A DNA stretch of 64,000 nt, from assembly GCF_030684315.1 (NCBI RefSeq), contig NC_081362.1, positions 16,734,589 through 16,798,588 of the forward strand, written 5' to 3'. A model generated the notes under the pieces. The model worked only from the letters and a program-made list of their open reading frames with translations, was not told the DNA's origin and searched no databases. This document shows, in pieces, positions 5,047 to 62,281 of this stretch (position 1 is its first letter; each line of letters opens with the position of its first letter). Made by a program: the position numbers and the translations under genes. Source of the DNA: Stegostoma tigrinum. Its lineage: Eukaryota.

Positions 5047-5222
5047 AAAAAAAAACCAGAAGAGCTGCGGATGCTGTAAATCAAGAACAAAAACAGGAGT
5101 TTGCTGGAAAAGCTCAGCAGGTCTGGCAGCATCTGTGAAGAAAAAAAATGAGAGTTAATGTTTCAGGTCCAGTGACCCTTCCTCAAAACCATTGACCTGC
5201 TGAGATTTTCCAGGAACTTACG
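5047..5222. mobile_element. Penelope-derived mini element (minus-strand tail, decayed hammerhead, inverted tail fragment) nested in CR1
   Basis: Minus strand reads ttgaggaagggtcactggacctgaaacattaac; followed by plus-strand gacctgctgagattttccag. Confidence 0.75.
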
Positions 5223-5888
5223 TTTATGTTACTCATTACCTCCTCAAAGAAGCCTAACACAATTCTTAGGCATGACCTCCCCTCGACTAAGCTGTGCTGA
5301 CTCAGCCCTATTTTATTACACACATCAAAATACTCTGCAATCTCACTTCTTAATAGTAGACACTAAAATCTCTCAAATCAATTGATGCCACACTAACCTG
5401 CCTATAGTTTCCTGTTCTCTGTGTCCCTTCTTAAATGAAGGTGTTACTTGAGCCATTTTCCAGTCCTCTGGAATCCTCCCTGACTCCAGTAACTCCTGAA
5501 AGATCACCTCCGATGCCCCTACAATCTCCTCAGCTATCTCTTTCAGATCTCAAGCGTAGCCCACGTAGTCCAGGTGATTTAGTTACCTCCATACTGTTCA
5601 GCTTTCCCAGCACCTTCTCCGTAGTGAAGGTCACCACACTCGCCTCTGACCCCTGGAACTCTTGAAGCTTTGGTATGCTGCTTCCACATCGAAACTGATG
5701 CAAAATACCTATTCAATTCCTCCATCGTTTTTTTGTTCCCCATTACTATTTTTCTAGCATCATTTTCCAATGTCCACTGTGGAGCAGCTGGTAATAGAAC
5801 CCTTAGGTTCTGGGTTTGATGTGTAATATGGCAGACTTGATTAGGGAGCTAAGATGAAAGAACCCCCTAGGGGTATACTGAGGTTATT

Positions 5889-6245
5889 GGGGAGGCAGTG
5901 GCCTAGTAGTATTATCACTGGACTGTTAATCTAGAGACCCAGATAACATTCTGGGGACCTAGGTTCGAATCCCACCATGGCAGATGATGGAATTTGAATT
6001 CAATAAATATCTAGAATTAAGAGTCTAACGATGACCATGAATCCATTGTCAATTGTTAGAAAAAATCCATCTGGTTCACTAATGTCCATTAGGGAAGGAA
6101 ACTGCCATCCTTACCTGGTCTGCCCTGCATGTGACTCCAGACTCTCAGCAAAGTGGTTGACTCTCAACTGCCCTCTGGGGCATTAGGGATGGGCAGTAAA
6201 TGCTGCCTAGCCAGCAACGCCCTCATCCCATGAATGAGGAGAAAA
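5889..6245 (+). mobile_element. tRNA-headed SINE with LINE-derived body and tail
   Basis: A box tggcctagtag, B box ggttcgaatcc; body matches 17786-17828 and 63094-63178; tail matches 20516-20575. Confidence 0.85.
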
Positions 6246-8411
6246 ACTCTCTCTTCCCTCTTAGATTTTATATATCTTTTTTTAAAAAAACTCTTGCTGT
6301 CTTCTTTTATATTACTGGCTAGTTTACTCATTTTTTCATCTTCTCAACCCGGCCACTTTTATTTTAGTTGTCCTGTACTGGCTTTTAAAGGCATCCTACT
6401 AATCTTCACCACATCGTGTGCTTTTATGCTGTTCTTGACTTCCCTTGTCAGCCATGGTTGCCTCATCCTGACCTTAGCATGTTTCTTCTTCCTCGGGATG
6501 AATTTCTGCCCAAGGAACTCCTACCATTGCTGTTCCACTTGCAATACCTGTTAGGCTCCCCTTCCAATCAAGTCTGGTCAACTCCTCCCTCATATCTTTG
6601 TTGTTACCTTTTATTCAATTGTAACACTCTTAGATCTGATTCAATCTTTCCCTCTTAAACTGCAGGATGTGTTCTATCATGTTATGGTCAGTACCCCCTA
6701 GGGGGCTCCTTCATCTTAAACTCCCGAGTCAAATCTGCCACATTACACGTCGAACCAAGAACCCTAAATGTTCTACCACAAGCTGCTCCAAAAAAAATCT
6801 TGTAGACATTCCTTTTATTGATTTTCCAGTTCCCCCATGATTATTTTAATTGTGCCTTTCTTACACACCTTCTCTATCTCCTGATTTATATTCTTCCCTA
6901 CATCCTGACGACTGTTTAGAGGCCTGCACACAACTCCCATCGTGGTTTTTTTTTCTTTGCGGTTCCTTAACTCTGCCCACACAGATTCTACACTTTTCCA
7001 ACTCTGGATCACTTCTTGCTATCAACTTAATTTCACTTCTTACTAAGAAGGCAACCCTGCCCCCCTCTGCTCGTCAACCTGTCCTTACGATAAAACATGT
7101 ATCCTTAGATATTTAGTTCTTAGCCCTGATCCCCTTACAGTCACGTCTCTATGATACCCATAACATGATACCTGCCAATTTCAATCTGCACTACGAGCTC
7201 ATTTGCCTTGCTTTGTATATCGAATGCATTTATATACAACAACCTGAGTTGATTGACACCCCCCCTCCACTTATAGTAGATCCCTTTATCTACTGTACCT
7301 GAAGTTAGATTCTTGATCCTTTGAATGCTCACTATCCTATTACTTCTTACATTAGTAACCTCTGGTGAGTCCTCCCCCCATTTAATCTTTACCATAGTTT
7401 TCTATGGACTCTGGCTCCAGCATGATTCAGGTGGAGCCCCTCCCATTGAAACAGCTCCCTCCTTCCTCAGCACTGATTCCAGTGCCCCATGAATTCAGTC
7501 CTGTTTCTCCTACAACAATCTTTGAACCACACATTTACCACTTTCATATTGTTGACCCCGTGACATTTGTTTGTGGTTCAGGTAGTAATCCAGAGATTAT
7601 GAATTTTTTGGTTCTGCTTTCTAATTAGCTGCTCATAGAGCCTCAGTAGGACCTCTTTTCTCTTTCTTCCCATGTCATTGGTACCAATGTTGGCACACCA
7701 ACTAGATTTTTCCCCTCCAAGCCCCTCTACAGCCCAGATGAGATGTCCTGAACCAGGACACCAGGCAGAAACCCAGCTTTGGGGCTCTCCAACCTGGCCA
7801 TAGAGAACAGTGTCTATTCCCCTGGCTGTACAATCTTCAGTTACATGTGCATTTCTGTTTGCCCCTCCATTTCAAATTGCTGTCTGGACTGCGATGCTGT
7901 GGTCAGTTTGCTCATCCTCCCTACAACCCCACTTCCATTCACAGGGAACAAGAATCTCAGACCTATTAGACAAACTCCAGGCCTGAGGCTCCTTCAGCAT
8001 TACCTACTAGGTCTCTCTACTTGCCTTACTGATAGTCACACCCTCCTGTCCCTGACCACTGACTGAAGTCAAGATAGTTAATCTAAGGGGTGTGACTGCC
8101 TAAAACACAGCATCCGGGTAACTCTTACCCTCCCATAAGTGCCAGTATTTGAAGTTCGGACTCCAGCTCATCAACTCTGAACCAGAGCTCCTGAAGCAAA
8201 CAGCACTTGCTGCAGATGTGAGCACTGTCAGCCACAGTGGGGTCCACCAGCTCCCATATGTACTGTTATAACAAATCACCTGACCTGGCATCTCTGGTTT
8301 GTTTACTTTGTGTAAATTTTTAAAAATCAAATTAAGAACAACCTTTTAGTTTGTAGCCTGTAAATATTTCCCTATTTACCTTCAGTCTGAGAGTTACCTA
8401 TAATAAATGGT

Positions 8412-8690: not shown

Positions 8691-9049
8691 TTTTCAGATA
8701 GTCACATTAGTAACTATCACCAACCAATGAAGTTATGTTTATGTGTGAAGTCACTCGTCTGTTCTGGGTCCCTGATTCTGGCCTTCAATTTATCCTCTTA
8801 AAAAAAGTTTAAATTATGAGCCAAAGAAAGTACTTATTCCCCTCTGCTCCAGCTTCCCACACTGCCTCCAAATTCCCTGAACTATACACTCACTCAGTCT
8901 ATGTCCCTCTCTGGATGCGACCTCTCCTCCCTGACTGTGCCAAGTTTACTGAGCATATCCACAGTATTTAAGCTGGAGGTTTAAACTTCTGATCACGGGC
9001 ATTATCCTGACCAAACTGCTCCCTGACTCCCAACAACAGTTGAATAAGA

Positions 9050-9403
9050 AATAATGGGAGCTGCAGATGCTGGAGAATCCAAGATAACAAAGTGTGGGGC
9101 TGGATGAACACAGCAGGTCAAGCAGCATCTTAGGAGCACAAAAGCTGACGTTTCGGCCAGGACCAAACAGACCTGGGCTGTTTCTCTGATATACCTACAC
9201 TCACCTTTACTGGCTCCATCCCTGCCTCTTCGACATGCCTGTCTCCACCTGTCTTCTCCTCTATCCATCTTCTATCCACCTCCCCCTATTTATTTCAGAA
9301 CCCCCTTCCCTCCCCCCATTTCTGAAGACGGGTCTAGGCCTGAAACGTTAGCCTTCCTGCTCCTCGGCCTGCTGTGTTCATCCAGCTCCACACCTTGTTA
9401 TCT
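9050..9403. mobile_element. Penelope 3' fragment in fold-back arrangement with hammerhead motif at 9322-9349 (+)
   Basis: 9050-9160 is the reverse complement of the element tail; plus arm has CTGAAGA-cgggtctaggcct-GAAACGTT and ends at gttatctc. Confidence 0.85.
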
Positions 9404-11668: not shown

Positions 11669-11739
11669 GTAAAAGTAGTCATTCACACGTATGTAAATGT
11701 AATTTTTAACAGTGCTATAATCAAAACTTGACACCACCT

Positions 11740-13901: not shown

Positions 13902-14669
13902 GTTGGTTTGCATGATACCTCTGTACCTACTATCTTTTCTGTAAAATTTGTGGTCGCCTAGTGTATTTTGGTGTACAAATTGCACTTTAGTTTGTTTTCT
14001 TACTTTTCTGATACAAGGAGATGATTTGTACACTAATGCAGCTCATTTTTTTGTTAAATTGACCAACTAAATTTTGTAGCTTACTCAAAAAGATTTTTTC
14101 CATTAACTTTCCACAATTCTAACGTATACAGGTTTTAGCACATACTAATTTTAAACACTCTAGGTGAGAATAGAAAGACTGCCAAACCTAGAAAAAGACA
14201 CTTGAATATCATTCAGTTTTTCATTTGTATAATACTACATTTTTGCAACACAAACAGTCCATTACGACCAACGTGTTTGTGAGCATTCTGCCACCCACCT
14301 CCTATCCCTATCACTAAATACTTCTTTTTTGTGTTATGGATTTATTGTTCTATCACTTAAATGGATCTTTGCCAGTTACCTCAATCAGTCCTTGTGGTAG
14401 ATAGGTCCACATCCTCAGCAGTTTTCTGGGTAATAAAGTTTCTGTTGAATTCCCTACTGGATTTATTAAAGATTATGTTATACTCAGTGGTCCCTCACTT
14501 TGGTTATAACTAAGCTTGGAAGCACCTAACTCCAAATAGAGACCTATTAAATCTTTTCATATTCTTAAAAACTTCTAACAGTCACCATGCAGCTTTCCCT
14601 TATTTAGAGGAGAGAGACACAGCTGTTCAGTTTTTTCCCGATGGATATGTAATTTCAGTTCTGATATCA

Positions 14670-14873
14670 AGAACAAAAACAAAGTTGCTGTAAAAACTCA
14701 GCGGGGTCTGGCAGCCTCTGTGAAGGAAAAAAACAGAGTTACTGTTTCAGGTGAGGAAGGGTCACCAGACCCAAAACGTTAACTGTTTTTTAGTGTCACA
14801 GATGCTGCTAGACCTGCTGAGCTTTTCCAGCAATTTCATTTTTGTTCCTGATTCACAGTTCTTTTGGTTTTTA
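14670..14873. mobile_element. Fold-back Penelope-derived mini element with decayed hammerhead and imperfect 16-bp TSD
   Basis: Inverted tails around tgaggaagggtcaccagacccaaaacgttaac; flanks ttcagttctgatatca (14654-14669) and ttcagttctgctacca (14874-14889). Confidence 0.8.
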
Positions 14874-17759
14874 TTCAGTTCTGCTACCATTTGTTTTCTA
14901 TCATAATTCTAGAGTTAATACATTTCTGGAGCAGTGAAGCACTCTGAAACTTGGATAACAATATCTTGTTATCACAAGTGTTCAATTATTTGATAATTAA
15001 AATTTCTTTAAATTATTACAGAGGGAAGACAATGGCATGATGGATTTAAGACATCGGGGTAGTGGAACAATTTGGGAGTTAAAACAGAACCTGTCATCTT
15101 AATCACTAGCTAAATTTCCCATTCATATTTTTATATATTGGACATATAAATCCCAAATTTTAACCTTACTCACCTTCTGGATCAGGGCATATTCATCCCA
15201 TCTAGTGTTTTTTTTAACACATCTCCAGAGCAGGCAGGACTTGAACATGGGTCTCCCAGTCCAGCAGTAGGGACACTATCACTGTGCCATAAGAAGGCCC
15301 ACTAGATTTATACTACTTGACTTAGACAAGTAAACTGAAGCCTGCTAAAGTAATTAAGGAGCCTAATACCATAAGCAATTTGTGAATAGTGATTCTCAGA
15401 TTAAGTGATGGATGGAAGGTCAATGCATTATTAACAACATTGTTACCTTCACCACTGACAGTAGTCCTGCAATCTTCAGTTTTTCTAATAATGGTCATTA
15501 GCCTTGACTGTAGAGGCTGAGACTGATCCAGTTCTCTTTCATGCACCCACAGTCCCACCCAATTGTGCACCTTTAAATTGGACCATTAACTTTTGTGGGC
15601 TTCTGCTACAGCACTTTCTAAATTGAGATCCATTCCAGCGTGCCTCTGAGCTTTCCATTTGAATACAGGCTATTAACAAAGTGTAAGCAAAGTGTACAAA
15701 AATAGGGTTTTTAGGCATTTCTGAGTCTTTGTATCTTGGCGTTGTGGCCTGGGTAAGCAGGCCCTGTATGCTGTGAGAATCACCAACAATAATGTGCATT
15801 TTATTTATTTCCTATTAATTATTTTATTAATTAACCATACTACAAATCTGGTTTCTGGCATTATATTGTGGCTCTGGCAGGGAGGATTGCATCTGTTCTA
15901 CCTGGAGAGCTCATGAGAAGTCTTTGATTTCTGCCAATGCAGAGCTGTCAGTTTTCATGACTGTCTAGAGAGAATTGACAACTGCAAGTGAAAATAGATC
16001 ATTTGGCTTTTTGAACCTCCACATTTTAGGACCTTTAATAAAAAATAGAATTCTTAAAGAAAGCATTCTGTGTTTCTGGCTTTTTTAATGCTTAATTGAC
16101 AGAACATATTCATAACTATTTTTCTTATATGCAACAGCAGATACGGTGCAGAACAACTAAATTTTCAAAGGCTAAATGAAACCATTGATCTCTCTCCATC
16201 GCAGAAACTCTGATCTATGCCAGGATCGCCTCTAGAGCTAATGTGTCAAATGCCCTCCTCATTTTCATCTTCCTTCAACTTACCACAAATTCTGGTTAAT
16301 ACAAGACTCTAGATTACCCATTCTCTTATTGTTTTCTAGGAACAATCACTTGGGGAAATGCCTCCAAGGGTTATTTAATAACATGTGCACCTGCTTGGTA
16401 TATGCAGCTTCTGAGAGAGAGCTCAGAAGTCCAATAAAACAGTGTCCTGTTTATTGTATAGCTGTTGCATAGGCAATTCTAAATGAGATCCATTGATAGT
16501 ACACTGCACATCTGCTTTATGGTGTATGCCCCATATATTTACCAATCATTGTTTAAACTTAAACCTTGGGGGTTAATCTGTACTGGCAGTTTGGGTCCCT
16601 GCTGACTTGCTCCTAATTATGGGCAGTCTGAGTTGAATGCCAGTTGAATTGTAGGGTTTATTTATTCTTCAAACTGATGCCTGTATTGCCTACTCCTTGC
16701 CCACTTAATCTTTGGAGGGAGCATATGTATAAATGTTTTATTAGTCTCTTTTTAGCCTTTTAATCTTTAATTCAGATTGAACTACCTCTGCTGCACACAC
16801 TGGTCCTTGGTACATCTCTCTACATTCCGGTCTTGTGTAGGACATTACACACTATTATATCCCTATAGCCTAGCTTCGGTACTATATGGAATATGCATCA
16901 TTTTGAATAAAAAATGCTTTTCATGAGAAATTGCTTTGCTTCCAGCTATGGTCTCCGTTTGCTACATAACACTCAGGAGCTGTAATTTCCTCCTTTCTAA
17001 CATGAAAGGATATATGGATGGTAGAGCAAGTTAGAAAGGGGCTATGAATAAAAAAAAATGCAGGAATAGAATTTAATATGAGAAAATGTGAGGTTTACTA
17101 TTTTGGATCTGAGAAAGACAAATCAGAATTTGCTCTTAATGAATAGAGACTGAAGCTAGGAAATTAAGGGTTCCGTGCATATCCTTGTAAAAACATCACA
17201 AAAAAAACCTAGCACACAGGTATAAAATGCAATTATAAAGGTTAATGGGATGTTGGCTTTATCTCCAAGGGATTTAAAGTTCAGAAGTGTGGAAGTAATT
17301 CTACGGTTGTTCAATTTGATCAGGCCCCATCTAATATTGTATGCTGCATTCAGTTTGTGTTACAAACCTCAACAAAGGTAATAAGATATAAAAAGAAACT
17401 CGATGAAATGAAGAAACTCAACTGGTTAGGCAGCATCTCTGAAGAGAGAAATAGAGTTAACATTGCAAGTCCAGTGATTGTGGAACTGAATATTTGTGAA
17501 GATGTGTTTTATGCCATTGAAAACGAAACAGGGCAAGTGGAACAGGAGGGTGAGTCAGGAAAGATTTAGAAAAATGGGAAATCAAAGATATCATAGAACA
17601 AAATGTATGGGAGGTAGAAATGGTTGCAGAAAAGATGAAGCACAACACTATCACAGGTGCTTATAAAATTGTGTGGGTTGAGGGGGGAAACATACTCTAC
17701 AAAGAAATATTGGCTGCAAGGCTGGATCAAAACATGTAAATTATGAAGACAGGTAGCAT

Positions 17760-24002: not shown

Positions 24003-24622
24003 GTAAGTTGAATCACACTGCCTGTATCTAGGGTATCATTTACTTACGCTGTTTTTAACCGCATGTTTACCCCAGTTTCCACTGCTAACTCTGTGTTGGC
24101 ATGAAACATTCTTTATGTCAGTTTATGGACCTGCTTTCCACTGGTGGCACACATTCCTTGTTCTGGCGACACGTAGCCTCATTGTATGGGATTTTCTGTC
24201 TACTGCAACATCTTGCAATTCCAACTATGGGAATAACTTCCCATTTTTAAGTAAATGAAATCAATATTAGATGTTTAGTCAAACATTTCCAAAACAAATT
24301 GGAATGTTAAAACTGCCCCTGTCCTGTGTACCAGAAAAGGACAAAGAAATAGTGATAAATTAATTTATTAATTAATTCAGTGACAAAGAATTGATTCAGT
24401 GAATTTCTTGTGTAATAACTGTAAATAGATCTTGAGGTACTTATTGCTTAACTTTAATGGGGACATTAAATTATTGGGTTAATGTCAGCATTAAAGTTAT
24501 GCTCATTAAGAAAAATGTTGAATCACGCAGGTTGAAATAATGAGAATTTGTATTAAGTTTGATTTCTAATTTTCTTGCAAGTTATGTTTTGCGAAACTTG
24601 CTTCTGAAACAAACCATGAATT

Positions 24623-24650
24623 CTGATGAAGGGTCTAGGCCCGAAACGTC
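24623..24650 (+). ncRNA. Minimal type I hammerhead ribozyme motif
   Basis: CUGAUGA-A-GGGU(CUAG)GCCC-GAAAC-GUC; conserved core intact, palindromic ACGU in place of stem III; activity untested. Confidence 0.75.
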
Positions 24651-24713
24651 AGCTTTTGTGCTCCTGAGATGCTGCTTGGCCTGCTGTGTTCATCCAGCCT
24701 CACATTTTATTAT
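24623..24713 (+). mobile_element. 91-bp Penelope 3'-end insertion consisting of hammerhead core plus tail, with 9-bp TSD
   Basis: Appears identical to 50006-50096; flanked by ccatgaatt at 24614-24622 and 24714-24722. Confidence 0.92.
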
Positions 24714-24771
24714 CCATGAATTATATTTCTTGTCTGTCATTTAAAACAGTCTCCAAATTCTCTGCCTTTAG

Positions 24772-24872: not shown

Positions 24873-24894
24873 GTAAGAGCTGTATTGTTTTAAA

Positions 24895-25090
24895 TACAAA
24901 CAGAAAATGCTGGAAATACTTAACAGATTAGGCAACATCTGAGAAACAAAATTAACATTTCAAGTTTTAAGTCCTTACATCAGATCAGACGTGGAACATT
25001 ACTTCTGTTTCTCTCTCCGTAGAATGTGCCCCAACTTGGTATTTCCAGCATTTTCTGTTTGCATTTCAGGTTTTCAGAATGAACAATATT
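24895..25090. mobile_element. Old fold-back Penelope-derived mini element starting ~22 nt after an RMND1 donor site
   Basis: aaacagaaaatgctggaaatac (~24898) is complementary to gtatttccagcattttctgttt (~25039). Confidence 0.7.
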
Positions 25091-28061: not shown

Positions 28062-28190
28062 CTGATGAAGGCCATCTAGACTCGAAACATTAGCTTGCTG
28101 TCTGTCCATGGATGTGGCCTGACCTACTGTGATCTCTAACACTTCTTGTTTTCAGTTCAGATTCAAGTATTTGCAGTAATTTGCTCCTAA
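28062..28190 (+). mobile_element. Penelope-type tail with hammerhead-like motif (variant subfamily)
   Basis: CTGATGA-aggccatctagactc-GAAACATT followed by the family tail. Confidence 0.65.
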
Positions 28191-28945: not shown

Positions 28946-29572
28946 CTGTTCATTTTGATTATTTAGGAAGATTAATATAGCTGATTTTCTAAAAATGCAG
29001 GAACAAATGGAACAACATTCTATTTAGGAGAACTAAAACAAAAAAAAATTGGACAAGCCTGCTTCAGGGAATACTGGCAAGTCTGCTGTAGAGTAGTAAA
29101 GCATAAAATAGGAAAAGCATGTATATCTGTGAAATCAAGGAAAGCATAGGAGAGTGTTCCCTCTCTCCAAGTACAGATATTCCCCAGAGAATTTGCCGAA
29201 ATAAAGCAAGGATACTTAAATGTTTTGAGAGAAGTAGCATTTGTATTTTATAGTATAAAGATCAGTATTATACAAAAAACAATAATGATGAACTCACAAC
29301 TAAAGTGTTCACTACATGTCATCTGGTTTAATTTTTAGACAATTCTGAAATTAATCTCCCAACTCCAGTTAATGTGGAAAGAGATTGGCTCTTTTTTGAA
29401 ATGTCTCGACAGCACATTTTCTATTTGTTCTTCATTCAGTAGCTGTGGTCCCTGCAGCAGTACAGGTTGTGATTCATGTAACTGCATGAATGTCCACACC
29501 TCTCAATTACCTCTTGATCAGATAATGAATATTGCTCCAATGCTTTATGCCAGTTTCAAAACTTTCAGTTTA

Positions 29573-36231: not shown

Positions 36232-36366
36232 AAAAAACCCGAAGAACTATAGATGCTGGAAATCAGAAACAAAAACAAATTGATGGAAAAGTTAAGCGGA
36301 TCTGGCAGCATCTGTGGAGAGAAAGCACAGTTAATGTTTCGGGTCCAGTGACCCTTCTTCAGAACA
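36232..36366 (-). mobile_element. Penelope-derived mini element with hammerhead motif (36329-36365)
   Basis: Minus strand: gtt-CTGAAGA-a-gggtc-actg-gaccc-GAAACATT-aac; stems I and II pair. Confidence 0.82.
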
Positions 36367-36515
36367 GATTATTATAACTTTGTCTTTTTCTCTGCATATT
36401 CTCTTTTCCTATATAAATAATAGTACCAAAATGTTTTGTGAGTATTAACCTAAGAGTTCAGCACCTCATACAGCACTAATCCGCCTGATGTTTTCCGAAA
36501 TTTGTTCTCTTTCAG

Positions 36516-39319: not shown

Positions 39320-39420
39320 AGTAAAACAGAAGTTGTTTGAAAAGCTCAGCAGGTCTGGCAGCATCTGTGAAGAAAATATCAGAGTTAACATTTTGGGTCC
39401 AGTGACCCTTCCCCAGAACT
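39320..39420 (-). mobile_element. Penelope-derived mini element, decayed hammerhead
   Basis: Minus strand: agttctggggaagggtcactggacccaaaatgttaactct. Confidence 0.75.
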
Positions 39421-41429: not shown

Positions 41430-42320
41430 ATAAAAACAGAAAATGCAAGAAACACTCAGCAGGTTAGGAAGCATCAATGGACTGAAATATTTAATATTTA
41501 AGAGTGTTGTTTTTTTTAATAAGAACTGGGAAAAAGTATAGGTTCTAACAATTTATAAACAAGTGCAGAGCCAGGGAAAGGAGGGGGTAATGGGTTTGTG
41601 AGGGGCAAGTTGAGAAAAATCTGAGCTTGGGAGAAGGACGGGGTAATTAAATGGACAGAAAGGAAGGAAGTGCAAAGTAACAGGACAAATAAAGAAGCAA
41701 ATGATCCATGGGGTGTAAATATGGTAATAACTGCTGACTGTGATAATGTGAGCTGTGGTTATAATCTAAGGATATTAAACCGAAAGCTGATTCTGAATGG
41801 AAATCACTTGCTGAAAGATGAGCTTATGCCAAGTTTCACTGGAGCAACTGATGGAAGCGCAGGACAGAAAGGGATGAATAATTATAATGGCAAGGGACTA
41901 GAAATTCAGGTTCATGCTTGGTGACTGAATAGTGGTGTTCAGAAAAGCAATCATCCATTCTGCGTTTGGTCTCCTCAGTTTAGAGAAGACCACTTTGTTA
42001 GTAATCAGTACTAAATCCTAAATTGGAATAAATTGCTCGTTCAGTTGGAAGGGGTATTTAGTGCCTGTGACACCAGGAAGGAAGGAAATGAAAGGACAGA
42101 TGTTGCATCTCTTGGACTTGCAAGGGAAGAAGCATGTGAGTGATCCAGGGTGTTCCAGAGAAACAACTTAGAACAGGGATTTTTTCTTTGCTCATATACA
42201 TTTCATTGACTCCAGTTTCTTCAAAATTATTCCTAAATTATTCCAGCTCTGATAAAAGGACATTGAACTAAAACATTAACTTTGTTTTTTACCCCCAGAT
42301 AATCGCTGAATATTGCTGTT
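41430..42320 (-). mobile_element. Old Penelope-like 3' region (minus) followed by an inverted tail copy
   Basis: Tail at 41430-41500; GIY-YIG-like remnant gtttggtctcctcagtttagagaagacca (~41965); plus-strand ctgataaaaggacattgaactaaaacattaac (~42249). Confidence 0.6.
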
Positions 42321-44647
42321 TATCTTTTACAATATTGACAAATGTTATTTGATCTGAAGGAAGCGCTTAATGGGTTACCCATAGTAATTAAGTGGCATTT
42401 TTAGCAATTCTGCAAATTCTTTCAAAGTCAAACATAATTTTAAGAAGTAAATATCAATTACCATATTTTGTACCAAACTAAATAATTCTGCTGCTTAGAA
42501 TTGTTTCTACAAAATGACGATGCTAGTAACTTGGGAAAGAGATAGTGCCACTGCTTCAAGTATAAAAATGAGTAATAATAGGAAGCGTAAAACACATTTT
42601 CTAAAAGAAGAGCTAGAAACAGTGAAAATCAAAAGATAGCTATGGAGTCATGGAGATGTACAGCATGAAAACAGACCTTTCGGTCCAACTCATCCACGCC
42701 AACCAGATATCCTAGATAAATCTAGCCCCATCTGCCAGCATTTGGCTCGTATCCCTTTAAACCCTTCCTATTCATGTATTCATCCAGATGCCTTTTAAAT
42801 ATTGTGTGAGACTCCATCACTTCCTCTGGCAGCTCATTCCATACATGAACCACCCTCAGCGTGAAAAAGTTGCCCCTTTTAAATATCCCCTCTCACCTTA
42901 AACCTATGCCTCTAATTTTAGATCCCCTACCCTGGGAAAAACACCTTGTCTATCCACCCTATCCAGGCCCCCCATAATTTTATAAATCTCTATAGGATGA
43001 CCCCCCAGTCTCTGACGCTGAAGGGGAAGTAGCCCAGCCTATTCAGACTGTCCCTATAGCTCAAACCCCCAAAAAAATAGTGGACGGAAGAGAATCTTGG
43101 CTGTAAGAGTTGTTTTGTATTGAGGTTTTTTTCCAGTGCTGGAGCTGATTTCTTCACTTTCTCGAAGTGGTACTTTTGGTTTTTATACGTTTTTGCTTTG
43201 ATTTTGGAACTTTTAAAAGAAGATCAAAAATGATGATACTTTAAACAGGAGGAAGGTGAGAGAGAAGGAGGAAGTTTCAGGAGGGACCACGTGGGAGGCC
43301 GGAGAATGGCTCGTGAGTTCAACAAAAAAAATCAAAAGGAAGATACTTAGCGTTCATGTGCATTGATTATTAAAATTTTATAAACAGGTATTCTAAATTA
43401 TTAGAAGTTTTAATGGAATGTGAGCCTTTCTATCTAAGGGACTGGAATTCCACAGCAGAAAGGTTGAACATAAGTGGACATCTTTTAAGGTGATTGGCGA
43501 AAAAACCTTAGGCAACATATGGAAAAGCTTTTAACACAATCTGGAATTCACTGCCTGAAAAGGTATTGGAGGCAGATTCAGTTGCAGCTTTCAGGAATTT
43601 GGATAAAAATCTGAGGGAAAAAATGCAGGCTAATGGGAATGTGCAGGAGAGCAGGAAGTAGCAAAATTGCTCTTGCAAGGAGCTGCCACAAGCTTAAGGG
43701 GCCCAACAACTCTCTTCAATGCTATTACCATTTCATGAAGTCATGCTGCAGTTATGCAAAACCCTGGTTAGATTGCATTAGAGTTATACAGCTTGGAAAC
43801 AGACCCTTCAGCCCAACCTGTCCATGCTGAATGTAATCCCCAACTAAATTAGTTCCACCTGTTTGTTGCTGGCCCATTTCCCTCCAAACCTTTCCTGTTC
43901 ATGTATTTATCCAAATGTCTTTTAAGTATTGTAATTATGCCCATATCCTCCACTTCCTTTGGAAGTTCATTCCACATGTGAAGCATCCTCTGTGTAAAAA
44001 AAAGTCCCTCATGTCTTTTATAAATGTCTCTCCTCTCACCTTAAAAATGTGACCTCAATCTTGAAAACCCCAACCTAGGGAAAAGACCTTATCTATACCC
44101 CTCAGGATTTTATAAACTTCTATAAGTTCACATTCCAACCTCCTGTGCACCCGTGAAAAAAGCCCCAGCCTATCCAACCTTCCTTTATTAACTCAGACCT
44201 TCCATACCCAGCAACATCCTGGTAAAACTCTTCTGAACTCACTCCAGCTTAACAACTGGATGATCAGAACTGGACACAGTACTCTAGAAAATGCCTCATC
44301 ATTGTCCCGTACAACCTCAACATGACTTTCCAACTCCCATACGCGAAGAGCTGAGCAATGAAAGTAAGCGTGCTAAATGCCTTTTTAATCATCCCGCCTG
44401 TATGTGATGCAAACTTCAAAGAATTATATTACCTGCGCCCCTAGATCCGTCTGCTCTACAACACTACTCAAGATCCTGCCATAAATATAAGCCCAACTTT
44501 TGTTTGTTGTACCAAAATGCAATACCCAGCATTCATCCAGATTAGGTTATCCATTTTTCAGCCCATTTACCCATTTGATCTTGTGCAATTTTGGACACAC
44601 AATACTTCAGGAAGGATATCTTTACCTCCAAAGAAGTAGCTTAGATT

Positions 44648-44940: not shown

Positions 44941-45234
44941 CTGTGAAAATACCTAGACTCCCAAGCGTTAAACTGCAAGAGTCTCAAACTAGGATAAAAC
45001 ATGTTTTGAGTTCAAAAGAAGAGCCAGACTGGACTAAAAATGTTAACTCCATTTCTCTTTCCACAGATGCCGTCAGACCTGCTGAGTTTCTCCAGTACTC
45101 TGTTTATATTTCAGATTTCCAGCATCCACAGTATTTTGCTTCAAAAGAAACAAGGTTTTTTTTACAGGAATAGTGATAAATATTTCTTCTGACTGGGAAA
45201 TCCAGGTGAATCACAGAATAAAATAGTAGAACTT

Positions 45235-47236: not shown

Positions 47237-48026
47237 GTAGGTCATTCAGCTGCTAAGACCAATTTTGTTATCTCATTTTTCAGGGTTGTCAATTCAAGGT
47301 TGTCAAAATAACCTAAAGCTAACTATTGTTACAGATCCTGTATAAAACGTTTACAATTTCTGTTTGTCGCACTTATTAGGTGAGGCTTATTGGTGGAGTA
47401 GACAACTTTCAACCTTGTGTACCTACGTGGCACCATGCATCACTATGTTGAGTGTAGGGTGAGCCATACAGCGCTCTCTTCGCTCCAGCCTTTCAGTGAG
47501 CCTTTGCACTAAACTGAAGAGTATTCTCTGATGCACCAGTGTGAAATTTTCTCTTTCCCACACCAGCTGTCCTCCACGCCTCGCCAAGAAACAACCTCAG
47601 TGGTGCCAAATTCTTAGCAGACCCACGAATAGTTTGAGGTGGGTCAAACCCATTTCACTCAATCCCTCAGAGTCAAATGTGACTCCCATTACAAGATTCA
47701 GCATTTTAATAGCCAGTAGTGAGAGGAAATTTTCATTCTATCAGTCTAGGCTAAATTGTAAACCTGGTTAAGAGTGTTAAACGTGTTCATTTCCATCTTA
47801 TCATAACTTTTACTGTACTTGTAGATTATTGTGTACCTACAAGTTAGCAATGATGATATCTTGTAATAAAACAGATATCTGCCCTTTGCATAAGTCAGTC
47901 ATTTAGATTTTGAAATGTTTTTATTTTAAAAATTGAAGCATAACCTGTGTGCCTCTGTCTAAGATAATAACATGTGAGGCTGGATGAACACAGCAGGCCC
48001 AGCAGCATCTCAGGAGCACAAAAGCT

Positions 48027-48054
48027 GACGTTTCGGGCCTAGACCCTTCATCAG
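48027..48054 (-). ncRNA. Minimal hammerhead ribozyme motif (antisense arm)
   Basis: gacgtttcgggcctagacccttcatcag is the reverse complement of CTGATGAAGGGTCTAGGCCCGAAACGTC. Confidence 0.75.
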
Positions 48055-48795
48055 AGAGGGGGATGGGGTGAGGGAACTGGAAGAAATAGGGAGGGAGGGG
48101 GAGGCGGACCGAAGATGGAGAGTAAAGAAGATAGGTGGAGAGAGTATAGGTGGGGAGGTAGGGAGGGGATAGGTCAGTCCAGGGAAGACGGACAGGTCAA
48201 GGAGGTGGGATGAGGCTAGTAGGTAGCTGGGGGTGCGGCTTGGGGTGGGAGGAAGGGATGGGTGAGAGGAAGAACCGGTTAGGGAGGCAGAGACAGGTTG
48301 GACTGGTTTTGGGATGCAGTGGGTGGAGGGGAAGAGCTGGGCTGGTTGTGTGGTGCAGTGGGGGGAGGGGACGAACTGGGCTGGTTTAGGGTTGCAGTTG
48401 GGGAAGGGGAGATTTTGAAACTGGTGAAGTCCACATTGATACCATTAGGCTGCAGGGTTCCCAGGCGGAATATGAGTTGCTGTTCCTGCAACCTTCGGGT
48501 GACATCATTGTGGCACTGCAGGAGGCCCATGATGGACATGTCATCTAAAGAATGGGAGGGGAAGTGGAAATGGTTTGCGACTGGGAGGTGCAGTTGTTTG
48601 TTGCGAACTGAGCGGAGGTGTTCTGCAAAGCGGTGTCCAAGCCTCCGCTTGGTTTCCCCAATGTAGAGGAAGCCACACCGGGTACAGTGGATGCAGTATA
48701 CCACATTGGCAGATGTGCAGGTGAACCTCTGCTTAATGTGGAATGTCATCTTGGGGCCTGGGATAGGGGTGAGGGAGGAGCTGTGGGGGCAAGTT

Positions 48796-48948
48796 GACAT
48801 CTGGGATGTCCAAGTTCTTCAAGGCGCACATCCCAGATGTCCAAGTTCTTCAAGCCGCACATCCCAGATGTCCAAGTTCTTCAAGACGCACATCCCAGAT
48901 GTCCAAGTTCTTCAAGGCGCACATCCCAGATGTCCAAGTTCTTCAAGG
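48796..48948 (+). repeat. Five tandem units, period 31 nt (cgcacatcccagatgtccaagttcttcaagN); first unit partial and partly inverted
   Basis: gatgtccaagttcttcaag starts at 48805, 48836, 48867, 48898 and 48929. Confidence 0.97.
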
Positions 48949-49799
48949 ACTGCAACTTTCCCCCCACAGTGATCGAGAACGCCCTTGACCGCGTCTCCCG
49001 TATTTCCCGCAACACATCCCTCACACCCCGCCCCTGCCACAACCGCCCAAAGAGGATCCCCCTCGTTCACACACACCACCCTACCAACCTCCGGATACGA
49101 CGCATCATCCTCCGACACTTTCGCCATTTACAATCCGACCCCACCACCCAAGACATTTTTCCATCCCCACCCTTGTCTGCTTTCCGGAGTGACCACTCTC
49201 TCCGTGACTCCCTTGTTCGCTCCACACTGCCCTCCAACCCCACCACACCCGGCACCTTCCCCTGCAACCGCAGGAAATGCTACACTTGCCCCCACACCTC
49301 CTCCCTCACCCCTATCCCAGGCCCCAAGATGACATTCCACATTAAGCAGAGGTTCACCTGCACATCTGCCAATGTGGTATACTGCATCCACTGTACCCGG
49401 TGTGGCTTCCTCTACATTGGGGAAACCAAGCGGAGGCTTGGACACCGCTTTGCAGAACACCTCCGCTCAGTTCGCAACAAACAACTGCACCTCCCAGTCG
49501 CAAACCATTTCCACTTCCCCTCCCATTCTTTAGATGACACGTCCATCATGGGCCTCCTGCAGTGCCACAATGATGCCACCCGAAGGTTGCAGGAACAGCA
49601 ACTCATATTCCGCCTGGGAACCCTGCAGCCTAATGGTATCAATGTGGACTTCACCAGTTTCAAAATCTCCCCTTTCCCTACTGCATCCCTAAACCAGCCC
49701 AGTTCGTCCCCTCCCCCCACTGCACCACACAACCAGCCCAGCTCTTCCTCCGCACCCACTGCATCCCAAAACCAGTCCAACCTGTCTCTGCCTCCCTAA
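48929..49799 (+). CDS. C-terminal part of the Penelope-like ORF (linker with Cys/His motif plus GIY-YIG endonuclease); RT missing
   Basis: PCNRRKCYTC...NVVYCIHCTRCGFLYIGETKRRLGHRFAEH...VANHF...EQQLIFRLGTLQPNGIN, open frame; the start at 48837 is an artefact of the tandem repeats. Confidence 0.9.
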
Positions 49800-50005
49800 C
49801 CGGTTCTTCCTCCCACCCCAAGCCGCACCCCCATCTACCTACTAACCTCATCCCACCTCCTTGACCTGTCCGTCTTCCCTGGACTGACCTATCCCCTCCC
49901 TACCTCCCCACCTATACTCTCTCCACCTATCTTCTTTACTCTCCATCTTCGGTCTGCCTCCCCCCTCTCCCTATTTATTCTAGTTCCCTCTCCCCATCCC
50001 CCTCT

Positions 50006-50033
50006 CTGATGAAGGGTCTAGGCCCGAAACGTC
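50006..50033 (+). ncRNA. Minimal hammerhead ribozyme motif (sense arm)
   Basis: CTGATGAAGGGTCTAGGCCCGAAACGTC in the 3' repeat of a GIY-YIG element, the established location for Penelope hammerheads. Confidence 0.78.
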
Positions 50034-51049
50034 AGCTTTTGTGCTCCTGAGATGCTGCTTGGCCTGCTGTGTTCATCCAGCCTCACATTTTATTATCTTG
50101 GAATTCTCCAGCATCTGCAGTTCCCATTATCTCTGCCTCTGTCTAAGTCTCTTTTACATCCTATGATCTGTATGTCCTTGCAAACTATATACTGCTCGTG
50201 AACAAAGCTTTTCACAGTACTTAGGTACATGTGACAATAAATAAATCAAAATCAAGTCAAATATGCAACACACCTACTAATATTTTTCCTCCTGCATGGA
50301 CCCCTGGGCAGTGGCTTCCAGAACCAGAAGTCATTGCAAGGAACAGTGTCAGTGCGCCAAGCAATGTGCATGGATCCTCAGAGTGTCAGTGTGGCCATAT
50401 AGCCTGGAGGAAACTCTGCCAATACATTGGTTTTGCAAAATATCTTTTTTGCATCATCGAATAATTGAATATCCTTTGTAATGGATGTGGCTTCAAAACC
50501 ATCAAAGGCGGAAAAAAATCAAATACTAAATATTTAATCCTAAGACAGGCAAATACTCATATCACCTTTCCTTCCTTGGGTAAAAAAACAAAATGATACT
50601 ATAGTCTGCAGGCATGAAGCTAAATCTACAGCTGAATCATAAATAATTTTATTAATCCCTCAAACACAGCTCTGAAGATGATGATTATGAATTTCAGCAT
50701 CATGCAATGCGACAGTTTATTTTTAAAAAAGTAACATAAGAGTAATTCCCAATCCCAGCAGGGAGCATTGCTGACAGGAAAGTGAATTGGAGGTTTCACT
50801 TTTATTTACATTGACCTTTCAGCATGGCTTCACTATTGGAAGTTGCTGATAATGTAGCTGAGTTATTTTAATTTCCGAAATGGATCCAATTATCAGCAAT
50901 CAGCAAAAAACAAGGACAAAATCTGTGACTTTTTACTGTACTCTGCAGAATTTTATGGGACAGGTAATTTTGGATTGAACTGCTAGTTTCAAATTCCAAG
51001 CATTCATGTTTTTCTACTAAATGATTGATAATGTCTTGATTGAGTTGTG

Positions 51050-51620: not shown

Positions 51621-52619
51621 TGGAGATGGTAAGAACTGCAGAAGCTGGAGTCAGAGTCAACAACCTGAAACGTCGACTTTCCTGCTCCTCTGATGTGCCA
51701 GACCTGCTGTGTTCCTACAGCTCCATTGACTACACTACTCCTCTACTCAAATCATTTAACAATGGCTAACATTTCATTGATGTTAAAATGATCAAAGGTC
51801 AAAATACTGATGATAATTACATTTGTTAACATTGTTATAGAAGGTATGTCAGTCTCCTGTAAATAGTAGTCAATGGTAGTATTACACATTATTGCAATTA
51901 TGCTTAATTGAATTGAGAAGCATTTGGACAGAAGTATATACTAGCTGCTAAATTTAACAGCAGGTTGATTAATAATATCAGTTTCAAAGCAAGTTATCCC
52001 AACATTCAAAATTGTAATTAGCAGCAATTGCTAAGTGGAAGACTAGAGTACTTTCAGTTAAGACTTAGTAGAAAACCTTATTTACTCCCAAGAACAATTC
52101 ACTTGTTTTCCTTTAAAAGTGAATGTGCAGTTTTTAGTATTCCTCACAATATAGATGCATCTAGTATCGCTATCATTGTTGAAATTAAAAGTAAGAATTG
52201 AGGACAAGATTTTCAAAGAAATTGTGGCTTTTAAGAATGCTTTGACTTCCAATTTTTAACATTTACTTGAGATTTTTAGTCCAAGCACAGGAATAGACTA
52301 TTTGGGCCATCAAACCTATGCCACAATTTTGTCAGGCATGCAGCTATTTTTCGAATTTTGGTTCACCACCCTTTCCCCACTGGGGAGTTAATATTCCCAA
52401 ATGCTTGGAGATAAAGGTACACGTTGTAGTTCTCATTTTCTGATCCTCACTTCCCTTAAATGATTTCTCACTGAGAGAGCAGGATTGCTCAGTTTTGTAT
52501 GCTTTCTTCTAAATTAAAAAAAACCCTTAAAACATCCAAACATGACCTTCTGGAGCACACAGTGAAGTAATGCAAATACTCAGAACCTGAAATGAGAACC
52601 AAAAGAAAGCCTGGAAAAA

Positions 52620-53065
52620 TTTCTGAGGAAGGGTCACTGGACTTGAAATGTTAACGCTGTTTTCTCCACAGATGTTGTCAAAACTAATTTCTCCAGCAAT
52701 TTCTGCTTTTATTTCTTTCACATCTCCAATTCTTTGCTTTATTTTACTGGAAAAACTAATATCTGTTAGCATCTGTAAAAGACAAAGAGTTACCATTTCA
52801 GGTTAATGGCCTTTCAGCAGAATTGAAGGAAGATAAAAATGGAAAAGTTTTTGAGCAGGTGGAAGAGGTGAAGAGTTAGATAGAACAAATTGAAGGTCTG
52901 TACTAGATTGGAGGCCAGGGAAGATTAAGTGACAAAATATTTCACGATGCAATAGCCAAAAAGAATGGGAATGGGTCTAGCAAAGAGCTTAATGATATGA
53001 AACTTAACTCTGCTTTTCTCCATAAGTGTTGCCTGACTAGAGTTTTTCTAGTCTTTTTTTGTTAA
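52620..53065. mobile_element. Cluster of decayed Penelope-type tails in alternating orientation
   Basis: ctgaggaagggtcactggacttgaaatgttaac (52623, +), a minus copy at 52745-52825 and a plus copy at ~53000. Confidence 0.65.
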
Positions 53066-54047: not shown

Positions 54048-54053
54048 AATAAA
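54048..54053 (+). promoter_or_regulatory. Candidate RMND1 polyadenylation signal AATAAA
   Basis: AATAAA ~320 nt after the stop codon, followed by T-rich sequence; other AATAAA hexamers occur further downstream. Confidence 0.45.
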
Positions 54054-58600: not shown

Positions 58601-58669
58601 GACAATGATAGCTGAAATTTGAAGCATGGTTCACAGTAAAGATGGTCCCTGAATTTGCACGTAATCATA

Positions 58670-59350
58670 TTAAGCTTGAGCAGGGGTGCAGGGAAAGACT
58701 TGGGAACTCATTTTCTGCATAGACATTTTACAACTCCTGTGACTCAATATTAAGTTCCACAACTTCAAAGTGTGATCTCTATCCTCCATGTTTCCTACAT
58801 CCTCCCCCTTCCCCAGCTGTGTCTTGATTGACTTTGCTGTCAGCTGAGCTGACCCATTTTCTCCTTTTACCAACTAATATTTACAGCTACTGACATCCTT
58901 CCATATGTGCAAGGTTTCTATTTCTGAGAACCGCTGCGAATGATGACATCCATGAGCACCGAGCCTGTCAAAAATATAAGTTAAAAATCACAGATAGGCA
59001 AGTTTGCCCACGGATGTTGAATTTTGTTGCTACTTAACTTTTGGTGCAGATAGGCAAATTCATGAGTTATTAACGCATGAATACAGACTTTACATCTCTA
59101 TCACTTCTTTACCACCACTATCATTCCCTCTATCTTTTGCTCTGAGCACCTTCTCAGTCTGTTCTACTTGCTTCTCCTCTCCCTTAATCAAGAGCATAAA
59201 AATCACCATTTTTCAGTTTCTTCAATTCCGAAGATATCATACTGGACTTTTGAAACATAACTCTGTTTTTACTTCCACAGACTAGACCTACTGAGTCAGT
59301 CCATCACTTTGTTTTTATTTCAGATTTTGAGCAGTATTTTGCTTTTATTC
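58670..59350 (+). mobile_element. Old Penelope-like 3' remnant
   Basis: gactcaatattaagttccacaacttca (endonuclease C-terminal end) and tail gaaacataactctgtttttacttccacagactagacctactgag. Confidence 0.55.
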
Positions 59351-60287
59351 CAGTACTCTGCTGATTGGACTCAGACCTGAACTTGTCCAAAATTCTACTG
59401 CTCTAATCCAAGCTTATACTAAGATGTGTTTACATAATCTACATTCACTTCTGATTAGATAGGTGATTTCTAAAATCTTATCCTTGTTTTTAAAGTCTCT
59501 CCATGGCCCCTCCCCTTTCTGGCTTTGTAACCTTTCCCAGAAGTGAAACTCCACAAGATCTCTGTGCTCGTCCCATGTTGTCATGTTGTACATCCAAAAT
59601 TGTAATCGCTGTGCCATCAGTTATCAAAGCCACAGTTATTGGAATTTCCTCCGCAGGCCACTGCACCCTGCTCTTCTCCTTTAAGAAGTTATTTAAACTT
59701 TCTTTGACCGAGCTTTTTGTTGCTTGCCTTAATAGCTCCTCATGTGGCTTAGTGTCAGACTTGTCTGGTAATACTCCAGTGAGACACATTCTAACTTTTT
59801 ACTACATCAAAGATGCTTTATAAATGTACATTGGTACTTGAAAGGCATGTAATTCACAATGATGTCAAGCAGACATTTGTAAATAAAACCCACTCAAATT
59901 TGATCTATTCTGCCAGAGTCTTCAGCCAGTTTTCCCCACACTGCAGTTTTCTTCTTAAACTATTCATCTTGCTGCATTTGTCCTCTGTGTCTTCAGTGCT
60001 CATTGATAAGAATAGTTTGAGTAGATATTGAGAAACCCTTTCTACTAAAGGAAGATGCCAGCACAAGGGAACATGACGTTAAATTCAATACCAGGCTGTT
60101 CAGAAGAAAAGTTAGGAAACACGTGTTCGATCTTCTCTACAGAGGCAAGCGGGTAATTCATCCAGTTAAGTCCTGCATTGCAGCCATTTTGTGTCAGTGC
60201 TGGTATTTTATCAACATCAAATTTGTTCCCCATTGTATTCCAGTTCAATCGAAGTGGCAAAGCAGCAACAGGTCATCTCTCCAACCA

Positions 60288-61262
60288 ATGGGCCCCTGGT
60301 TTGTGATATACATAATGATCTGGAGGAAGGTATAAATGGTCTGATTAGCAAGTTTGCAGATGACACGAAGATTGGTGGAGTAGCAGATAGTAAAGAGGAC
60401 TGTCAGAGAATGCAACAGAATATAGATAGATTGGAGAGTTGGGCGGAGAAATGGCAGATGGAGTTCAACCCAGGCAAATGCGAGGTGGTGCATTTTGGAA
60501 GATCCAATTCAAGAGTGAACTATACGGTAAATGGAAAAGCTCTGGGGAAAATTGATGCACAGAGAGATCTGGGTGTTCAGGTCCATTGTACCCAAAAGGT
60601 GGCAACGCAGGTCAATAAGGTGGTCAAGAAGGCATACGGCATGCTTTCCTTCATCGGACGGGGTACTGAGTACAAGAGTTGGCAGGTCATGTTACAGTTG
60701 CATAGGACTTTGGTTCGACTACATTTGGAGTACTGTGTACAGTTCTGGTCGCCACATTACCAAAAGGATGTGGATGCTTTGGAGAGGGTGCAGAGGAGGT
60801 TCACCAGGATGTTGCCTGGAATGGAGGGCACTAGCTATGAAGAGAGGTTGAGTAGATTAGGATTATTTACAGTAGAAAGACAGAGTTTGAGGGAGGACCT
60901 GAATGAGGTCTACAAAATCATGAGAGGTACAGACAGGGTGGATAGCAAGAAGGTTTTCCCAGAGTGGGAGGCTCAATTACTAGGGGTCACAATATCAAGG
61001 TGAGAGGGGAAAAGTTTAAGGGAGATATGTGTGGAAAGTTCTTTTCGCAGAGGGTGGTGGATGCCTGGAACGCGTTGCCAGCGGATGTAGTAGATGCGGG
61101 TATGATAGCATCATTTAAGATGCCTCGAGACAGATACATGAATGGGCAGGGAGCAGAGGGATACAGATCCTTGGAAAATAGGCAACAGGTTTAGATAGAG
61201 GATCCAGATTGGCGCAGACTTGGTGTGCAGAAGGGCCTGTTTCTGTACTGTAATTTTCTTTG
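60288..61262 (+). mobile_element. 5'-truncated, fairly young CR1 LINE (RT C-terminus plus 3' UTR)
   Basis: ISKFADDTKIGG, KWQMEFNPGKCEV, LEYCVQFWSPHYQKD in track ORF 60191..61003. Confidence 0.95.
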
Positions 61263-61915
61263 TTCTTTGTCTCTATATCTCCAACACAAGTAGATACATA
61301 AAGGTGGCAGCATGCTCTCCTGCCTCCCTTGTTAACACTCAGCTCTTCCAATGGTGTTGTTTGGACCTGCATGCATTAAATGGCAAACAAAGACAGGCTG
61401 TTAGAAAGCAGCTACATAGAGGGTTGTGTTGGCATACTGATAACTTGGGCTGGCATACAACCCCTACATGGAGAAGGATTTAGACACCCAATGCCTGGCA
61501 AAACATCAAACCAATTGAGCGCTTGCGTAGAAAGTAACATAGGAATAGAAGGGCTGTAGCAGCATTGAAAAATACAGGTTGATGTGGTAGCAATAAATGT
61601 GCACTTCCTGGAATTGTTCATAAAATATGCAAGTCAGTGGCTAACCATTTCCTTTTGTGACTAGCATTCATATCCCACACATATGTCCTCCCATTCTGTT
61701 TATCTCAGCCTTTCAGTCTGCTGTTGCATTCCCTTTTCTCTCTCTCATCTAGTTTTGTTTCAAAAAGATCTTAGTCATTTACTTCAAGTACTTCATGCAG
61801 TAGAATGTTTCACATTCCAAGGATTTTCTGAGTAGAGAAATTTCTCTATATTTCCCTTTTAGCCTATCTTCTTTTTCTGGGATTTTCACACAAGTAAAAA
61901 CATTCTTTTCACATC

Positions 61916-62281
61916 AAGAGATAGCAAGAACTGCAGATGCAGGATGGCCTAAACATGGATTTTACCAGTTTTAAAATCTCCCCCCCCGCCGCTCTCATCC
62001 CATTTCCAACTCTCCCTCTCATCCCCACCCCCTTGACCTGACACAACCTGTTCATCTCCCCTCCCACATACTGTCCAATCCCCACCACTCCCTACCTGCA
62101 ATCACCTATCACCATCCCACCCCCCCTTCCCCAGCCCCACCCCTCCTCTCTATATCTCAGCTCCTTACCCCCTCCCCATTTCTGAAGATGTCTCCATGTT
62201 TTCCGACCCGAAACATCAACTTCCCTGCTCCTCTGATGCTGCTGGGCCTGCTGTGTTCCTCCAGCTTCACACTGTGTTATC
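61916..62281 (+). mobile_element. Penelope 3' fragment with short inverted tail and 12-bp TSD
   Basis: tcttttcacatc at 61904-61915 and 62282-62293; altered hammerhead ctgaagatgtctccatgttttccgacccgaaacatc. Confidence 0.85.

Follow-up and report, generated by a model that had tools for sequence, protein, structure and literature searches.

The window analyzed here is a 64,000-nucleotide stretch of the Stegostoma tigrinum genome (NCBI RefSeq assembly GCF_030684315.1, contig NC_081362.1, positions 16,734,589 to 16,798,588 of the forward strand; coordinates below are those of the window unless a locus is named). It holds many copies of Penelope-like elements (PLEs) whose ends carry hammerhead ribozymes, and our subject is the origin of the short copies among them. 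A first-pass annotation had listed 15 recognizable hammerhead cores. All 15 are present, with the first C of CUGA at approximately 5188(−), 9322, 14750, 24623, 28062, 30659, 33305, 36362(−), 39416(−), 42249, 45012, 48054(−), 50006, 52623, and 62182; for the minus-strand cores, the annotation had given the low end of the motif. Their number lies far beyond chance. The pattern CTGATGA-N10-40-CGAAAC has 4 matches where 0.01 are expected. The motif search that the annotation had proposed, run on an unselected sample of 1.064 Mb (the window plus 100 neighboring 10-kb tiles), gave 77 hammerhead-descriptor hits and none in each of five shuffles. A scan of the window against Rfam returned nothing at gathering score.

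The largest copy in the window (47958–50135) is a typical PLE insertion, consisting of two inverted arms of the family that we call A and flanked by a 14-bp target-site duplication (TSD; 47950–47963 and 50134–50147). Positions within a copy are counted from the C of CUGA, taken as 0, with the predicted cut after +27. The inverted arm (47958–48794, minus strand, −740 to +92/96) contains the C terminus of a GIY-YIG endonuclease and the intact core at 48054. The direct arm (48918–50135, plus strand, −1106 to +129) contains a GIY-YIG domain (PF01541, E 0.0012, below the gathering cutoff) and the intact core at 50006. In this arm, a TATA-like box (TATTTAT, 49972–49978), a putative promoter element, lies 30 nt upstream of −4. 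The C at −4 (50002), the putative transcript start, opens a minimal hammerhead (50002–50035) composed of CUGAUGA, an extra A, a 4-bp stem II, GAAA, and the ACGU palindrome, with the predicted cut after 50033. Among the short copies, a solo family A copy at 24622–24714 (plus strand, −1 to +91), has an intact core and a 9-bp TSD (24614–24622 and 24714–24722).

The cores are indeed minimal PLE hammerheads of several subfamilies, as the annotation had proposed. They contain CUGANGA, GAAA, and UH, stem II, and the G10.1-C11.1 pair, together with an extra base between positions 9 and 10.1 and a palindromic 15.2–16.2 segment without loop 3. The stem II variants GGGU-cuag-GCCC and GGGUC-acug-GACCC, the AGUU/AACU stem I of family B, the GUC and GUU cleavage triplets, and the ACGU palindrome were likewise described correctly. 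Helix I comprises 4 bp in family B and 2 bp in family A, against a published range of 4–5 bp; that of Drosophila virilis is also 2 bp (PMC4209133). Stem II differs between A and B by a one-sided change (U-G to U-A) and one added pair. A two-sided change appears only in two comparisons: with a third family (GAGUC/GACUC, G-C to A-U, single copies at loci L122 and L176) and with family G, a fourth one that lies outside the window and has a six-pair stem II and other stem I pairs. Family G was seen at loci L254, L266, L313, L064, L117, L121, L152, L159, and others, and the flanks fetched for it showed no protein similarity to family A.

The annotation had read this diversity as structure-preserving variation. 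Pairing is kept between families, and the variation reflects differences between source families, a conservation among source elements rather than selection demonstrated on the copies. Core variation was low in a first test on copies because subfamilies, that is, source families, were mixed in it, and a second test was inflated by copies truncated within CUGA. When restricted to haplotypes, variation in short copies stood at 0/120 in the core versus 4/408 downstream, and in a second haplotype group at 14/100 versus 8/340. Most window cores are decayed. The hammerhead descriptor used on the tiles, a relaxed one, is passed by only 6 of the 15, and three (24623, 48054, and 50006) are fully intact. 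Every one of the 12 decayed cores carries at least one CpG transition in CGAAACG, where the annotation had placed much of the decay. In the tiles, with subfamilies mixed, CpG core positions vary at 17% in family A and 28% in family B, and non-CpG core positions at 3.5% and 4.2%. Among arms that extend to CUGA, all core and ACGU positions are kept in 39 of 85 in family A and 12 of 41 in family B. The 5′ end of family A is predicted to fold into an inactive hairpin at −11.4 kcal/mol versus −3.6 kcal/mol for the hammerhead monomer; the corresponding predictions for family B are −11.1 and −9.1 kcal/mol. On these predictions, the active hammerhead fold would be disfavored in family A.

By tracing the tail into its continuation, we reached near full-length family A parents. 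At two loci (L326 and L328), the hammerhead sits in the pseudo-long terminal repeat (pLTR) of an element encoding a reverse transcriptase (RT) and a GIY-YIG endonuclease; hammerhead and tail lie directly upstream of the frame for RT plus GIY-YIG and again at its 3′ end. In L326, a 969-codon open stretch lies between two pLTRs, with an inverted arm ahead of the first, and the unit measures ∼3.6 kb. Its frame matches RVT_1 (E 5e-6) and GIY-YIG (E 0.005) in Pfam, both below the gathering cutoff. The linker before the endonuclease is CX4CxxC, a mark of the Neptune/Nematis group (PMC8557442); by linker and domains, family A is assigned as a Neptune/Nematis-type endonuclease-bearing (EN+) PLE. The main ATG is at +167, preceded by short upstream frames that open at +3 and +46 (L326:2532–2700; 13 and 31 codons). 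Since the 13-codon frame starts inside CUGAUGA, cleavage would remove both the cap and that ATG. Family A is abundant: 89,060 exact matches to its 31-base core were counted genome-wide, 49,704 of which are preceded by the 14 upstream bases. For family B, one pattern gave 2,489 exact matches.

Many copies amount to little more than ribozyme and tail, a claim of the annotation that we confirm. These short copies are 95–135 bp long, and their ends are not arbitrary. The 3′ ends cluster near +92 and +128, and inverted pairs join a +92 end to a +128 end in 16 of 16 cases from unselected tiles; the same pairing holds in 80 of 84 records of a larger, partly selected set in which double counting is possible. 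At the 5′ side, we examined 74 young A arms (unselected tiles, identity ≥90%, anchored on the 3′ part, older arms excluded). Ends fall at −8 to 0 in 24 arms (2.7 per nucleotide, mode −4), at +1 to +12 in 16, and at −30 to −9 in only 2 (0.09 per nucleotide). The cleavage-site interval, +25 to +32, holds 2 (0.25 per nucleotide), and 22 ends are scattered from −31 to −1385. This distribution, a check that the annotation had suggested, shows that truncation is not random and that there is no peak of cleavage products. Among distinct young copies of family B, 5 of the 57 examined are long.

The same data bear on a reading with two variants: short copies would be splice products whose acceptor lies immediately before the hammerhead, or simply the far end of a random truncation distribution. 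Splicing has some appeal: the Penelope intron of D. virilis ends at helix I (PMC4209133, in the part available), and in family B a pyrimidine run followed by CAG stands just before CUGA. Exons often end in G, and, as described below, a G often precedes the short copies. Against this, family A has no AG before −4, no GT follows the +37 side of the tandem junctions discussed below, and the TSD, where found, mostly abuts the start without intervening exon sequence. The density of starts at −8 to 0 is ∼30 times that at −30 to −9. Random 5′ truncation, which the annotation had named as the explanation that would undo its own, is contradicted by the 24 starts at −8 to 0, and splicing is largely refuted for family A. 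We rejected both readings and regard them together as highly improbable.

The favored start coincides with a promoter-like geometry. A TATA-like box lies 30 nt above −4 in family A and 29 nt above it in family B, and in family B stem I begins exactly at −4. The sequence around −4 is TCAGTT in B and CCTCTCT in A; these fit the initiator (Inr) and TCT initiator consensus, respectively. In addition, starts at −4 are immediately preceded by a G in 35 of 46 cases (22/25 inverted, 10/18 solo, and 3/3 tandem), versus 30 of 89 at other truncation points, which served as control (Fisher p 4e-6). In family B, 12 of 20 starts at −3 have a G before them.

The clearest view of this G comes from rare head-to-tail junctions in which +37 is joined to −4. 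There are 53 exact and 89 relaxed matches genome-wide, with a unit of 43 bp arranged as dimers and trimers. By our reading of the relaxed matches by eye, a single G that is absent from both templates stands at 69 of 89 junctions, and the insert ends in G at 76 of 89. This G is the cleanest evidence for a copied cap at the −4 start. Thirty of the 53 exact matches were fetched (L331–L360) and resolved into 27 distinct insertions. In all 27, the upstream unit never extends above −6; 4 are trimers, 22 lie in the +128 arm, and the set carries three or more subfamily markers. Because all stop by −6 and several subfamilies take part, these insertions look recurrent rather than derived from one master. 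The +37/−4 joint with its G also occurs in contigs of run X2. A depth step near 50000 in the contigs of X1 was considered and set aside as evidence: contigs cannot show starts, and X1, which is only presumed to be RNA, is another organism with divergent upstream sequence.

Closely spaced head-to-tail junctions of all kinds number 202 genome-wide against 89,060 cores, or ∼0.2%. Among the first 100 of the 202 listed, judged by eye, ∼56 end at +35 to +39, 19 at +29 to +31, and 13 at +45/46, and one joins +27 to the start; 7 duplications include the upstream pLTR, 3 of these at +27 (2 loci). Family B has 31 tandem-junction matches, which are scattered. At two further loci (L028; L329:8422, minus strand), a point at about +205, in the N-terminal region of the open reading frame (ORF), is joined to a start at −2 or −4 with G before it. 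In the window, the junction of the largest copy holds a 31-bp unit repeated 4.6 times (48805–48948, plus strand) that reiterates the 5′-most bases of the plus arm; this repeat may have arisen through similar re-copying where the end was truncated.

A fixed start with an extra G could also be set by structure. In that reading, the hairpin at +0 to +29, or its mirror in the cDNA, would stop or trim the cDNA, and the G would stem from non-templated C addition or from fold-back palindromes. The predicted hairpin of family A (CUGAUG/CGUCAG) begins at 0, the re-entry sites at +30 and +37 follow it closely on its 3′ side, inserts at several junctions form palindromes with the start (AG, GAG, and AGAG before CTCT), and the control truncations are themselves slightly G-rich. 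However, the mode at −4 lies outside the hairpin and fits the TATA spacing in two families whose predicted folds differ. Family G, with its longer stem II, shows no stop. Moreover, AG accounts for only 3 of the 89 tandem junctions, in contrast to the single G, and G is still found in 22 of 31 nonpalindromic cases. We therefore judge a structure-set 5′ end to be unlikely, although less so than the alternative discussed next.

That alternative is the one that the annotation had favored: short copies would form an independent, non-autonomous family resembling retrozymes or short interspersed elements (SINEs), with its own masters and processed by the hammerhead. Very high copy number, discrete length, and TSDs speak for it, as does the fact that most family B copies are short. 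By the operational definition of retrozymes in the available part of a 2026 preprint (bioRxiv 10.64898/2026.07.22.740005), the 202 closely spaced head-to-tail junctions would come near to qualifying. The short unit itself argues otherwise. It contains no RNA polymerase III (Pol III) A or B box, by exact consensus patterns, and no tRNA head, by ARAGORN, and the TATA-like box lies upstream of its start and hence outside it. Its main haplotypes are common to long and short copies (40 long and 72 short in one, 21 and 17 in another), which on this haplotype comparison speaks against a lineage of its own. What the annotation took for a separate class corresponds instead, as the layout of L326 indicates, to the 5′ end of an autonomous transcription unit.

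The traits of non-LTR retrozymes, namely tandem complete units and cleavage-defined ends, are absent as well, the 43-bp dimers being an exception of ∼0.2%. No head-to-tail unit with a complete hammerhead occurs in the window, only 2 of the 74 young arms start near the cleavage site, and +27 ends make up 4 of the first 100 of the 202 listed tandem junctions. The cis-dimer hammerhead fold of the 43-bp dimer is predicted at −3.0 kcal/mol versus −36.1 kcal/mol for the best fold. Short copies are SINE-like only in length, in their TSD flanks, and in their mobilization by another copy's protein, and an independent family is in our estimation very unlikely.

We consider it probable, from the arrangement of the genomic copies, that the short copies are dead-end cDNAs that ran off the autonomous element's RNA at its 5′ end, where a cap is predicted, with the uncleaved RNA as template. 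In this model, Pol II would start at about −4, 29–30 nt below the TATA-like box, so that the RNA opens with ribozyme stem I. The PLE protein would carry out priming on both strands of the cut DNA, at two sites within the RNA (+92 and +128). Priming on the 3′ copy of these sites would yield long, 5′-truncated copies, whereas priming on the 5′ copy would run off at the cap, which would be copied as an extra C and appear as a plus-strand G. On rare occasions the finished cDNA would jump back to +37, less often to +30 or +45, and the 5′ unit would be copied again to give the 43-bp dimers and trimers. Short copies would carry no promoter box and hence would not propagate on their own. The short unit is most simply a by-product, since it lacks the TATA-like box and Pol III boxes and shares its main haplotypes with long copies.

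Several of these steps have precedents in published work. The two groups of 3′ ends and the pairing of arms match the two RT start sites of an anole element, for which two-strand extension in vitro and an unprocessed RNA template are also described (PMC11167929). Reverse transcription of the cap gives an extra G in L1 and SVA (PMC2912911), and rotifer pLTRs contain a TATA box and an Inr (PMC3846280).

Several observations weigh against cap run-off as the source of the short copies. The solo copies, taken alone, show a modest G excess of 10 in 18 cases (p 0.008 against base composition, p 0.11 against the truncation control). The control itself leans slightly toward G (34% where 25% is expected, p 0.04), and part of the G signal may therefore reflect microhomology or non-templated addition in general. 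The G falls inside the TSD in several solos, and at many inverted junctions the partner arm accounts for it. The 5′ ends are spread over −8 to +12 rather than fixed to a single base. One A haplotype is mostly short (0 long and 15 short in one tally; 2 long with other anchoring). None of 15 family G copies with visible upstream sequence is short, ending at the hammerhead or below the TATA-like box, and the run-off route is therefore family-dependent rather than general.

It is useful to compare these copies with known systems. Hammerheads in PLE ends are already published, so that the observation itself is ordinary. Metazoan PLEs have minimal type I hammerheads with the same core, the extra base 9/10.1, the G10.1-C11.1 pair, a palindromic 15.2–16.2, and no real helix III; they too occur as many dispersed singles, as close opposite-strand pairs, and as several families per genome (Cervera and De la Pena 2014, PMC4209133). 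The numbers differ greatly, with 89,060 exact cores of one family here and ∼9,000 motifs in Xenopus, and helix I of family A has 2 bp; the fixed 5′ start and the extra G are not described in the available part of that paper.

The Neptune and Nematis EN+ PLEs (PMC8557442, PMC3846280) share with family A the order RT then GIY-YIG, a CX2-5CxxC linker, partial tandems, an inverted 5′ arm, a 30–40 bp tail at one end, a pLTR with TATA and Inr, and TSDs of 8–14 bp. The passages covered from those studies explain solo pLTRs by recombination or by deletion, and palindromes by self-priming with an antisense strand as template, whereas the solos seen here have TSDs and a fixed start. PAc, a Poseidon element of Anolis carolinensis (PMC11167929), shares a tail defined by two internal RT start sites, cutting and extension of both strands, and an unprocessed RNA template. 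The ORF of PAc starts inside the hammerhead, whereas here the ATG of CUGAUGA opens only the 13-codon frame and the main ATG lies at +167. Cap run-off and re-copying of the 5′ unit are not discussed in the part of that paper available. Non-LTR retrozymes (PMC7229834; bioRxiv 10.64898/2026.07.22.740005) likewise have a type I hammerhead, are non-coding, and are related to PLE pLTRs; the preprint proposes PLE ends as their source and notes their presence in one cartilaginous fish. They form tandem repeats mostly of 150–450 bp and are expressed as circles. In contrast, >99% of the cores here are single or inverted, and the rare tandems have 43-bp units that are not joined at the cleavage site.

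The feature is real and of a known class; its value is as a record of PLE replication that can be put to the test, and it bears on the part that the ribozyme plays in that cycle. If cap run-off is correct, the insertions, in their tens of thousands, chart at base resolution where the RNA starts, where its two priming sites lie, and how the strands pair; the uncleaved RNA would be the inserted form, and the in vitro system already established for PLEs gains precise predictions. How a PLE end could become a retrozyme-like array is suggested concretely by the tandem junctions with their 43-bp units. Fixed-start cap run-off copies and 43-bp re-copying in PLEs were not found in the literature searched, outside of which lay subscription papers and Repbase. 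The RT of PLEs is the closest mobile relative of telomerase. More tentatively, this RT might copy the capped first base, re-enter at +37, and re-copy the 42-nt ribozyme unit up to twice, so that tandem arrays are built in one step, non-LTR retrozymes are seeded from PLE ends, and the genome is a base-resolution record of the whole cycle; we hold this larger scheme to be possible but doubtful.

The remaining window copies span several families and degrees of decay. Two are long copies with coding remnants: a family B copy with a GIY-YIG remnant (32676–33431, plus strand; TATAAA at −33, Inr-like TCAGTT, core 33305 with G12 mutated) and a family B-like copy with an RT remnant (29536–30755, plus strand; decayed core 30659). 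Among short family B copies, one at 5051–5237 (minus strand) combines an arm from −3 to +132 (5051–5189, minus strand; CUGA decayed) with a partial inverted arm (5194–5237). A fold-back pair at 14666–14872 (plus strand) joins a minus arm (+18 to +103) to a plus arm (+1 to +132), with CUGA lost at the junction. Two others are on the minus strand: 36233–36369 starts a few bases before CUGA, and its core at 36362 passes the relaxed descriptor, and 39323–39420 (−4 to +93) is preceded by G and has a decayed core. A further copy (52621–52740, plus strand, −2 to +130) has a core that passes the relaxed descriptor.

Older and mixed copies complete the set, all listed on the plus strand. At 9047–9403, an A-type minus arm (9047–9156, +18 to +128) faces an older E/H-type plus arm (9239–9403, −90 to +92, core 9322). 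The third family, C/F, is represented by 28058–28165 (decayed core 28062, boundaries by eye) and 45007–45132 (decayed core at about 45012, boundaries approximate). An old inverted insertion at 41418–42340, whose right boundary is approximate, comprises a minus tail (41418–41481), a minus endonuclease remnant (41863–42128), and a decayed plus core at 42249. The E/H-type copy at 61944–62282 retains its upstream pLTR, and its core at 62182 is broken by an insertion in stem II. Additional fragments of tails from these families, their core gone or unrecognizable and absent from the first-pass annotation, lie at 429–480, 17414–17477(−), 24892–24961(−), 40069–40150, 51664–51721, and 59258–59327. Outside the window, a short fold-back insertion is nested within an older copy of its own family, in the pLTR (L136:2478–2759), and L326 also holds a 291-codon frame with a Cu/Zn superoxide dismutase domain (6392–7267, minus strand; PF00080, E 4e-10), probably a host exon adjoining the full-length element. 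An RT fragment at 60170–61003 of the window (Pfam RVT_1, E 2e-5) resembles a CR1-type long interspersed element.

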